Below, in pieces: positions 7,853 through 13,249 of a stretch of 20,896 nucleotides of DNA. The notes under the pieces are model-generated. The model saw nothing but the letters and a program-made list of their open reading frames with translations. It was not told the origin of the DNA and made no database searches. The stretch is from NCBI GenBank assembly GCA_016792935.1, contig JAEUJS010000455.1:1-20896 (forward strand). Reading direction: 5' to 3'. A program made the translations under genes and the position numbers. The DNA is from Archangium sp. GTDB taxonomy: Bacteria; Myxococcota; Myxococcia; Myxococcales; Myxococcaceae. The stretch's first letter is position 1. Each line of letters opens with the position of its first letter.

Positions 7853-8668
7853 TCAGCGACGCGATGCCTTCACTTTGATGCCCAGCTTGTCGAAGCGCCG
7901 CAACACGTCGCGCTCGAGTGACTTCTCGTAGACCTTCGTCCGCTCGGCGTTCTTCAGATGTCCGAAGGGATTACGAGGCGACTCGGTGTCGTCGAAGTCG
8001 CAGCCCTCGAACACCGCCTCTCTCGCGCTCTCCAGGTCCATCGTGATGCGCTTCTCGACGCGCTTCTTCTCGCGAGCGTTGAGCACCGGCCACAGCTGCG
8101 CGAGCAACGTCCACCCCAGCTGCGAGTGAAACGACTCATCGCGCGTCAGCGCCGTCACCACTTCGCGCGCCAGCGGGTCTTCCGTCACGTCACGCGTCGC
8201 GGCGAGCAGCGCGGTGGACAGAGTCTCTCCGATGCACAGACTTCCGGTGAGCGTCTGCACCGCGCGCACCCGCAGCGGCTCCGCTGAATCACTGCGCACC
8301 CACTTCGGCTCGCCGGGAATCTCGTCGGTGCCGCCAAGCGCGTTCACCAATCGCCGGCACAGCTCGACGTGCCGTGCTTCATCGCGCACCACGCGGACCG
8401 CGGCGGTCAACGTGTCGAACGCGCAGCCCAGCTCCGTCAGCTCGAAGAGGAACTCGGTGAAGCCGACCTGCGAGCGATACTCGTCGAGCGTGCGCAGCTG
8501 CCACGACTCGCGCGCCCAGCTGATGGTGTCTTCGTCGTAGCGGCTCGGGTCGAACGCCTCGAACGACTTCGCGTGCAGCGCCTCGGGCAACGCCTCGTCG
8601 AAGAAGCGCCGCTGATTCGTCGCGAGTCCGGAGTCGGCCGCGCCGAGGTGAAGGATGGGCTGCGTCAT
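7853..8668 (-). CDS. Ferritin-like diiron-carboxylate protein (duplicated E...DExxH motif)
   Basis: Start placed at ATG 8668..8666 (MTQPILHLGAADS), 4 nt after the upstream gene's TAA (8673..8675). First half-site: LDEYRSQVGFTEFLFELTELG...RVVRDEARHVELCRRL, Glu then DEARH about 33 residues later. Second half-site: CIGETLSTALL...TALTRDESFHSQLGW, Glu then DESFH about 29 residues later. This is the classic four-helix-bundle diiron ligand pattern. Confidence 0.75.
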   Translation of the reverse strand: MTQPILHLGAADSGLATNQRRFFDEALPEALHAKSFEAFDPSRYDEDTISWARESWQLRTLDEYRSQVGFTEFLFELTELGCAFDTLTAAVRVVRDEARHVELCRRLVNALGGTDEIPGEPKWVRSDSAEPLRVRAVQTLTGSLCIGETLSTALLAATRDVTEDPLAREVVTALTRDESFHSQLGWTLLAQLWPVLNAREKKRVEKRITMDLESAREAVFEGCDFDDTESPRNPFGHLKNAERTKVYEKSLERDVLRRFDKLGIKVKASRR

Positions 8669-8672
8669 GAAG

Positions 8673-9287
8673 TTACAGGCGGCAGTTTCGTTTGAGAAAG
8701 CCTTCGAGCGCTTCACGCACGCGCGGAACTTCCGCGAGCAACGTCGTCGCCTCGGCGACCAGAATCAGATTCGCGCTCTCGTCAGACGTCGCAGGCTGAG
8801 CACCTTCGGCAACTTCGCCATCATGCTCGCGGCGGCCGAACTGAATGGCGGCTCCAGCTTCCGAGCGATGCGCGCCCCACTCTTCCAGCGCGCTCACCAG
8901 CACCGACAGCGGCCGCGGCTCGCTGCCCAGCAACGCCGCGAGGCCCGGAGTCGGAGTCAGCGCCACCTCGGTCGTCAAACCAAACGGAGTGATCTCCGCC
9001 GTCACACCCTCGAGCGTCGCCGCGTTCAGCTGCGCGAGCGCCTCTCCGATGCTGACGCGCCGAGGCCGATTCACGTTGCGAATCGGAGGGGGCGGCGCCG
9101 TCACATCGGGCTGCAACTTCGGCGGAGACGAGCGCGGCGCGGCCTTCACCGCCGGCTTCTTCTTCGCGGGCTTCGTGGCGGAGACCTTCTTCAACTTCGG
9201 CGCGACCTTCGTCTTCTTCGCCGAGGCCGACTTAGGCGTCGCCTTCGTTTTGGCCCGAGCCGCGGGCTTCTTCTTGACCTTGCTCAC
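8673..9287 (-). CDS. Protein with a histone-H1-like Lys/Ala/Pro-rich N-terminal tail (about 55 aa) and an uncharacterised C-terminal domain
   Basis: GTG start at 9287..9285, preceded by GGGAGG with a 6-nt spacer. N-terminus MSKVKKKPAARAKTKATPKSASAKKTKVAPKLKKVSATKPAKKKPAVKAAPRSSPPK, then an acidic/hydrophobic domain (VSIGEALAQLNAATLEGV...LLAEVPRVREALEGFLKRNCRL). The 5' 56 nt overlap the 3' tail of the MVP-like gene in another frame. Confidence 0.7.
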   Translation of the reverse strand: MSKVKKKPAARAKTKATPKSASAKKTKVAPKLKKVSATKPAKKKPAVKAAPRSSPPKLQPDVTAPPPPIRNVNRPRRVSIGEALAQLNAATLEGVTAEITPFGLTTEVALTPTPGLAALLGSEPRPLSVLVSALEEWGAHRSEAGAAIQFGRREHDGEVAEGAQPATSDESANLILVAEATTLLAEVPRVREALEGFLKRNCRL

Positions 9288-13027: not shown

Positions 13028-13038
13028 CGAAAGCCAGA

Positions 13039-13218
13039 CTACTTCTGATCAGACTTCCCGACGAAGAACGTGCACTCGCGGACCGGCTGAGGCGGGTACT
13101 TCGGCGGAGTTCCCTGCGTGCACATCAGGAACACCGAGCGCGCGGTCTTCACCTCACGCAGGAACTGGCACGTGGTGCACTTGCTCTGAGGGAAGGGCTG
13201 ATCAGACACGCTTGGCAT
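13039..13218 (-). CDS. Small 4-Cys (zinc-ribbon-like) protein, 59 aa
   Basis: MPSVSDQPFPQSKCTTCQFLREVKTARSVFLMCTQGTPPKYPPQPVRECTFFVGKSDQK. It has CxxC plus two further Cys. The 'S.FLxC....P.YP.QPV..C..F' pattern matches a widespread small conserved protein family I remember from GC-rich genomes. It is the 3' end of a 254-aa track ORF whose upstream part is low-complexity and antisense to the sigma gene. It ends 11 nt before the ATPase start. Confidence 0.6.
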   Translation of the reverse strand: MPSVSDQPFPQSKCTTCQFLREVKTARSVFLMCTQGTPPKYPPQPVRECTFFVGKSDQK

Positions 13219-13249
13219 CTTCGCATCGTGTGTTGGATTCTCCTCCAGC

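Follow-up and report, generated by a model that had tools for sequence, protein, structure and literature searches.

A hypervariable ATPase/TOPRIM-like cassette beside a bacterial major vault protein gene with a predicted sigma-54-type promoter: a probable mosaic in an Archangium genome

The contig JAEUJS010000455.1 (positions 1 to 20,896 of the forward strand; GenBank assembly GCA_016792935.1), which belongs to a metagenome-assembled genome of Archangium sp. and is called the window below at its full length of 20,896 nucleotides, carries six closely packed minus-strand genes between positions 13218 and 7853, among which a pair encoding an ABC-type ATPase and a TOPRIM-like protein stands directly upstream of a major vault protein (MVP) homolog. 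Our results favor, with a probability of about 0.8, that this region is a mosaic of independent units and not a six-gene system. That is, comparison with the corresponding loci of relatives (denoted by L-numbers) shows that the ATPase/TOPRIM-like pair is a self-contained, exchangeable two-gene module sitting in a variable slot, and not a partner of MVP, and MVP itself would be transcribed from a promoter of its own. In the direction of transcription, the six genes encode a protein of 59 amino acids (aa) with four Cys (g1, 13039-13218), the AAA_21/ABC-type ATPase of 321 aa (g2, 12062-13027), the TOPRIM-like protein of 188 aa, a putative nuclease effector (g3, 11499-12065), the MVP homolog of 728 aa (g4, 9232-11418), a protein with a Lys-rich N-terminus and a C-terminal domain that has no assignment (g5, 8673-9287), and, to judge from its motif, a ferritin-like di-iron protein (g6, 7853-8668). 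Their junctions are a gap of 11 nt between g1 and g2 (13028-13038), an ATGA overlap of 4 nt between g2 and g3 (12062-12065), 80 nt between g3 and g4 (11419-11498), a 56-nt overlap of g4 and g5 (9232-9287), which gene callers also returned in L065, and 4 nt between g5 and g6 if g6 starts at the ATG at 8668 (an alternative in-frame upstream GTG at 8716 would give a 44-nt overlap with g5). Only 31 bp separate the ATG of g1 (13218) from that of a divergently oriented sigma factor gene (13250). The open reading frame (ORF) coordinates and the sequence thus agree with the gene order, the junctions and the divergent arrangement described in the initial annotation; it is important to note that six co-oriented, closely packed genes are, by themselves, within chance expectation for a bacterial genome.

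The initial annotation had further raised the possibility that nucleic-acid surveillance or cleavage by the ATPase and the TOPRIM protein is coupled to a compartment formed by MVP, which comparison across genomes does not support. Our comparison covered 64 loci with MVP homologs from GTDB species-representative genomes, mostly of Myxococcota and some of Planctomycetota, Acidobacteriota and other groups, with at least 2 kb available upstream of MVP in 55 of them. Homologs of g2 or g3 were found in the flanks of none of the 64 loci, either by tblastn or by iterative hidden Markov model search of all ORFs (jackhmmer), and clustering of the ORFs within 5 kb of MVP yielded no neighbor family common to more than seven loci. 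The bacterial MVP gene essentially stands alone, in a context that changes between loci. Among closer relatives, the site between g1 and MVP is empty in three cases: L020, whose MVP is 89% identical to that of the window, has the kinase and sigma genes divergent from g1, MVP, g5, g6, a counterpart of a 232-aa ORF of the window and a glycoside hydrolase family 1 (GH1) gene, i.e., the window order minus g2 and g3, and in L067 and L068 g1, again divergent from the sigma gene, is followed by MVP with nothing between.

Where the site is occupied, its content is far more divergent than its surroundings. Between L065 (MVP 96% identical) and the window, the sigma factor, g1 and g6 proteins are 91-93% identical vs. 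57% for g2 and 54% for g3; the corresponding values are 62% (g2) and 53% (g3) for L070 and 55% (g3) for L066, and the flanking proteins of all three loci are 91-96% identical to those of the window. At the DNA level, identity is ~85.5% in the flanks and at most 68% in the cassette, and the divergence is therefore more than amino-acid diversification. The alleles found at the site are no closer to each other than to the L073 copy, whose context is unrelated, and in L071, L072 and L073 the pair is present with MVP absent from the locus. A locus scan with a three-sequence g3 alignment returned two metagenome loci only. The cassette also differs in composition, with a GC content of 0.613 vs. 0.668 for the rest of the window and third-position GC of 0.72-0.78 (0.72 for g2) vs. 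0.80-0.89. Finally, one or two extra genes lie between the pair and MVP in L065 (2582-3759) and L070 (2042-2626); their products, of ~194 aa, carry a signal peptide as well as RFRW at the C-terminus and resemble small outer-membrane beta-barrel proteins, which shows that the slot accepts unrelated cargo.

The edges of the cassette can be placed by comparing occupied with empty sites. The window, L065 and L070, which hold three different cassette alleles, share the left junction CTGATCAGAAGTAGTCTG, where empty sites read CAGAAGCCGCGC; this junction is located within the end of g1, with CAGAAG continuing as TAGTCTG in occupied sites and as CCGCGCTGA in empty ones, so that the stop codon of g1 in the window is supplied by the cassette. 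The two edges also carry a perfect 12-bp direct repeat: its left copy (ACTTCTGATCAG on the plus strand, 13041..13052) coincides with the left cassette edge at the 3' end of g1, and its right copy (ACTTCTGATCAG, 11483..11494) lies just past the stop codon of g3; the repeat could represent recombination microhomology or chance. It is the combination of these results, namely the absence of the pair from the 64 loci, the empty sites, the divergent alleles, the pairs found without MVP, the GC shift and the edge features, that identifies the pair as an exchangeable module. Hence, the claim of a single linked cluster is not supported, since synteny across the 80-nt gap breaks in related genomes, an outcome that the initial annotation had itself named as refuting, and the comparative evidence favors the alternative that had been put beside it, in which the genes are neighbors by coincidence within a mosaic accessory region.

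The 80-nt gap is probably a break in transcription as well as in synteny. A predicted sigma-54 (RpoN) -24/-12 promoter, TGGCAC-ATCGC-TCGCT, lies at 11431..11446 on the minus strand, its GG being 27 nt upstream from the ATG of MVP; compared with the consensus TGGCAC-N5-TTGCW, the sequence (TGGCACATCGCTCGCT, 11446-11431) shows the correct GG/GC spacing (10 nt) and a single mismatch, which falls in the -12 element. When the 160 nt upstream of MVP were aligned for seven close relatives, the single invariant block was TGGCAC(A/G)TCGCTCGCT, 27 nt before the ATG, which is shared by 7/7 of them irrespective of whether the cassette is present. More broadly, among 60 high-GC loci, 42 have a strict -24/-12 pattern in the 120 nt upstream of the MVP start vs. 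~1.5 expected (0.025 per scanned stretch), and 52 have a slightly relaxed pattern vs. 3.2 expected, at positions -21 to -67 and amid sequence that is otherwise unconserved. Both the element and its position are conserved across the MVP genes of Myxococcota. It was not found at the MVP loci of Planctomycetota, Acidobacteriota or low-GC genomes. The pattern as such is not rare in the window as a whole (6 matches vs. 6.7 expected), and the evidence for the promoter therefore rests on positional conservation. One difference from typical sigma-54 promoters is that the predicted start would fall ~1-5 nt before the ATG in the clade of the window, giving a near-leaderless mRNA.

Between the stop codon of g3 and this promoter, the minus strand can form the hairpin that the initial annotation had noticed in the gap: sequence and RNA folding both recover it, at 11458..11484, with 11 pairs, a 5-nt loop and a perfect core of 9 bp (11460-11482). 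The 92-nt spacer as a whole is only slightly more stably folded than shuffled sequences (z = -1.64), and relatives with an empty site have a different hairpin, CGCGCTGA/TCAGCGCG, after g1. We regard the hairpin of the window as a candidate terminator or insulator for a g1-g3 transcript. The presence, downstream of this hairpin, of a conserved predicted promoter of the sigma-54 type argues that the MVP transcript is separate and does not depend on the divergent sigma factor; the latter, of the extracytoplasmic function (ECF) type, had been proposed to control the whole cluster, and such control appears possible for g1, g2 and g3 only. MVP, probably with g5 and g6, would accordingly be read as a separate sigma-54-dependent transcription unit. 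No enhancer-binding protein gene (Sigma54_activat) is among the window ORFs scanned, and the recurrent ORFs upstream of MVP that we considered for this role in other loci were rejected, as those of 466 aa and 361 aa begin like phosphotransacetylase and acetate kinase and one of 601 aa like LepA (N-terminal sequence only). A promoter scan found no sigma-70 promoter-like site in 7400-14100, and our literature search found no link of MVP to sigma-54.

As for the identity of the cassette, g2 matches the Pfam AAA_21 family (E-value 1.3e-23) and the PADLOC models HEC-01A (2.6e-27), mad3 (3.7e-18), PDC-M25A (6.5e-16) and AbiLi (4.2e-13), and its Walker A motif can be read in the translation as GPNDSGKS. 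A word-indexed search with g3 returned two relatives only, besides g3 itself; an exhaustive profile search returned 410 representative proteins of ~190-210 aa (clustered at 50% identity) that make up a family outside Pfam. In a 70-sequence alignment of this family, G7-E8-G9, R88-D89-x-D91, R96 and W128 are invariant and E126 nearly so, and the AlphaFold2 model of g3 (predicted local distance difference test score, pLDDT, of 96) has a parallel alpha/beta core of four strands, of which beta1, beta3 and beta4 (strands 2-7, 83-87 and 115-119) have E8, D89/D91 and E126 at their C-terminal ends, a placement of acidic residues that, in the model, is the TOPRIM arrangement. Members of the family are also recognized by PADLOC, the commonest HEC-01B model matching 17/70 and the commonest PDC-M25B model 19/70 (best E-value 5e-6), with further matches to mad4 and AbiLii. 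In the window, L065, L066, L070, L071, L072 and L073, the g3 homolog is directly preceded by a co-oriented ATPase gene. On these motif, topology and family-level profile grounds we accept g2 and g3 as the ATPase/TOPRIM-like pair that the initial annotation took them for, and as an apparently divergent HEC-01/PDC-M25-like module.

HEC-01 has been described as the pairing of an ABC ATPase with a TOPRIM protein whose metal site is also that of Burkholderia OLD (Payne et al., bioRxiv 10.1101/2024.01.29.577857). The window pair resembles HEC-01 and PDC-M25 in its two adjacent, overlapping genes, in protein sizes, in the E/DxD acidic motif and in the matches of g2 to the A models and of about one quarter of the g3 family to each B model; it differs in that HEC-01 is defined as embedded in Hma systems, which the window pair is not, and in that the window g3 falls below detection by all PADLOC and Pfam models. 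ABC ATPases also operate with TOPRIM nucleases in the OLD family, i.e., P2 Old, Gabija (GajA) and PARIS (AriA/AriB), but the window has separate and far smaller genes (321 + 188 aa). Moreover, g3 has no DUF4435 (AriB) match and the AriA match of g2 spans residues 180-258 only (~80 residues), unlike PARIS; g3 has no match to Pfam Toprim_Old, unlike OLD; and there is no GajB-like helicase, unlike Gabija. The cassette may therefore be described, from sequence likeness and by analogy, as a divergent candidate anti-phage system of the HEC-01/PDC-M25 class, within the OLD/Gabija/PARIS-like group of ABC ATPase plus TOPRIM systems, with a putative role in defense.

The arrangement that we propose has three units. 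One would be the ECF-type sigma gene and the kinase gene that follows it, both on the plus strand. Another would be the g2+g3 cassette, inserted exactly at the 3' end of g1; g1, g2 and g3 probably form one transcript from the g1 promoter, as the cassette sits at the g1 end and supplies the g1 stop codon and as the junctions of 11 nt and -4 nt point to co-transcription, and this transcript, possibly under the control of the ECF sigma factor, would end at the hairpin at 11458-11484. The remaining unit would be MVP, probably with g5 and g6, transcribed from the sigma-54-type promoter at 11431-11446. By homology and analogy, g2 might sense an infection cue and license g3, as a metal-dependent TOPRIM nuclease, to cut nucleic acid.

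Several points weigh against this arrangement. The MVPs of greatest similarity (93-100% identical) are those of the window, L065, L066 and L070, and all four genomes carry an ATPase/TOPRIM allele at the site; a functional tie of the pair to the locus that is restricted to this clade is still conceivable. The 12-bp repeat was rejected as a clean target-site duplication because in relatives the left copy is intact and the right-hand position holds only a degenerate copy. The hairpin lacks a U-tract, and a terminator scan did not call it; transcript ends, terminator function and sigma-54 dependence are predictions from sequence. The MVP loci are phylogenetically related, and the binomial P of the promoter counts overstates their independence. 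With regard to the class assignment, the window g3 itself has no match in Pfam, NCBIfam or PADLOC (the latter searched to an E-value of 0.01), and HEC-01 gave no protection against the phages tried in the single published test, in E. coli (bioRxiv 10.1101/2024.01.29.577857).

These four genomes, in which the pair lies between g1 and MVP, are also an argument for the opposite reading, namely that all six genes form one system that links ATPase/TOPRIM surveillance of nucleic acid to a vault-like compartment and is controlled by the ECF sigma factor and the kinase, and the co-orientation, the tight spacing and the 31 bp to the sigma gene fit such a system as well. However, the pair is missing from all 64 other MVP loci and from the site in three close relatives, the alleles at the site are as divergent mutually as from the unlinked copy of L073, the pair occurs without MVP, genes for unrelated outer-membrane-like proteins separate it from MVP in L065 and L070, and both the hairpin and the conserved predicted sigma-54 promoter stand between g3 and MVP. 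Comparative genomics largely refutes the six-gene system, and we consider it very improbable. A reading that deserves more weight, and that we hold as a tentative possibility, is that a promoterless cassette was captured behind g1 and placed under the control of the ECF sigma factor and the kinase, the latter acting as the sensor, with MVP as a bystander. The 11 nt between the g1 stop and the g2 start, the junction inside the end of g1 and the preservation of this junction in three cassette alleles all speak for such a capture. So does the linkage of g1 to the sigma gene, which it adjoins in 6/7 loci (the window, L020, L065, L067, L068 and L070), but all six belong to one closely related clade, where linkage may be mere inheritance, and in L069, whose g1 is 63% identical, the neighbors are unrelated and neither the sigma gene nor MVP is beside it, which weakens the idea of an obligate partnership of g1 with the sigma gene. 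Further, no ECF-type promoter was identified and the 31-bp spacer is poorly conserved. A weak zf-HC2 (anti-sigma-like) match at the N-terminus of the kinase (0.0031, residues 29-41), which is the sole sign of an anti-sigma domain, speaks for this reading and suggests that the kinase may be an anti-sigma/kinase fusion partnered with the sigma factor.

A different alternative leaves the cassette aside and treats MVP, g5 and g6 as a vault-like nanocompartment operon, i.e., a sigma-54-regulated cage with cargo, similar to encapsulin systems, where a cage protein beside a ferritin-like protein is reminiscent of the g4/g6 arrangement. L065 and L066 retain the overlap of g4 with g5 and the 4 nt between g5 and g6, and g6 has a di-iron motif (E...DExxH...E...DExxH) that is conserved in 8 homologs; its AurF match (6.9e-6) is below the Pfam cutoff, and among PDB chains it weakly matches AurF (0.003) and EncC, an encapsulin cargo of Myxococcus, the latter with an E-value (0.016) that is not significant. 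In addition, g6-like genes occur within 3 kb of MVP in the distant loci L043 and L033, but the L033 homolog looks like a lipoprotein. g5, which begins with ~55 aa that are ~30% lysine and histone H1-like, was seen only in an Archangium-like clade (the window, L065, L066, L020, L002 and L030). It travels paired with g6, and the two are separated from MVP by ~2 kb in L002 and ~8.4 kb in L030 of unrelated genes, among them those of a LysR regulator and of a Suv3-like helicase; at most MVP loci, different genes lie downstream. g5 and g6 are thus a pair of clade-specific neighbors of MVP, and we consider the nanocompartment reading unlikely. Slightly less likely still is a wider version of it, in which the MVP genes of Myxococcota belong to the sigma-54 regulon, the Archangium-like clade co-expresses g5 and g6 as a vault-based nanocompartment with cargo, and the adjacent ATPase/TOPRIM hot spot would hint at a context of stress or infection; if true, it would represent a second, encapsulin-like route to bacterial protein compartments. 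We favor the mosaic of independent units over these alternatives.

The MVP homolog and the divergent pair were likewise named correctly at the outset. For g4 (NCBI locus tag JNM17_25570), the identification as MVP is borne out by the Pfam domain MVP_shoulder (PF11978; 3e-31, above the cutoff) and by matches to the PDB chains of human and rat MVP (E-value ~1e-30; residues 185-648 vs. 273-758), with Vault_3 (2e-5) and Vault_2 (0.0045) both below the Pfam cutoffs. Its AlphaFold2 model, built from 12 sequences and of low confidence (mean pLDDT 55), has beta-rich repeats and one helix (526-647), so that g4 would resemble eukaryotic MVP (PDB 4V60/4HL8) in having beta-rich repeats before the shoulder domain and a long helix after it; it differs in its length (728 vs. 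~860-890 aa) and in its fewer recognizable repeats, and, unlike the eukaryotic vault, there are no TEP1 or vPARP homologs among the window ORFs and no Rfam (vault RNA) match. We found 784 homologs of g4, mostly in Myxococcota. To our knowledge, cage assembly by MVP has been shown in no bacterium. Bacterial homologs of MVP have been noted before, in silico only (bioRxiv 10.1101/872010). On the plus strand, the ECF sigma/kinase pair is likewise as annotated: the sigma factor (13250..13915) matches the NCBIfam model TIGR03001, 'sigma-70 factor, Myxococcales family 1' (198.7 bits vs. a cutoff of 154.6), TIGR02937 (54.5 bits vs. 42.9) and Pfam Sigma70_r4/r4_2, and the product of the next gene (14012..16057) is a Ser/Thr protein kinase (Pkinase, 4.4e-45) with two SAF domains (7.9e-21) and an AgmX/PglI-type tail (myxo_SS_tail, 1.2e-7). 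The small g1 protein has the pattern C-x2-C-x15-C-x15-C, zero matches in Pfam, NCBIfam and PADLOC, and four database homologs only. Five of seven codon differences from the L020 ortholog in the conserved core are synonymous and the four Cys are all retained, so that g1 is a real, conserved gene under purifying selection, although the gene caller skips the L065 copy (764-934); its start in relatives may be a GTG three codons further in.

A few additional observations concern the surroundings of MVP and other parts of the window. Of all MVP neighbors, the GH1-family glycosidase-like gene is shared most widely: in the window it lies at 5857-7326 on the minus strand, and 9 loci including the window have it downstream of MVP and co-oriented with it (the others being L008, L009, L012, L020, L042, L045, L065 and L066); it directly adjoins MVP in the distant lineages L042 and L045, whose MVPs are 53-54% identical. 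Its longest ORF overlaps the convergent 232-aa ORF (7142-7840, plus strand) by 185 nt (7142-7326), and relatives align only from residue 56 or 87, so that the true start is probably further downstream. The idea of the MVP neighborhood as a general defense island was also tried and set aside: PADLOC gave nothing convincing for the genes inserted beside MVP in L030, L065 and L002, where Pfam recognized the Suv3-like helicase, the LysR regulator, HlyIII and a PEGA-domain protein. At 572-5535 on the plus strand lies a conserved gene pair for a DUF4175 protein of 1072 aa and a TPR/Peptidase_MA_2 protein of 582 aa, whose synteny extends to L066, L020 and L017; it is unrelated to the finding reported here. 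No Rfam family or tRNA was found in the window.

In conclusion, an unsupported idea of surveillance coupled to a compartment can be replaced by a map in which a hypervariable, HEC-01-like cassette occupies a recombination-prone slot beside an MVP gene that is probably regulated independently. The family of ~190-aa TOPRIM-like proteins that accompany ABC ATPases, which lies outside Pfam and comprises 410 representative clusters, would extend the OLD/PARIS/HEC-01 class. The most interesting by-product is the sigma-54-type promoter of bacterial MVP: this conserved predicted promoter represents a first testable handle on when vault-protein homologs are expressed in bacteria.

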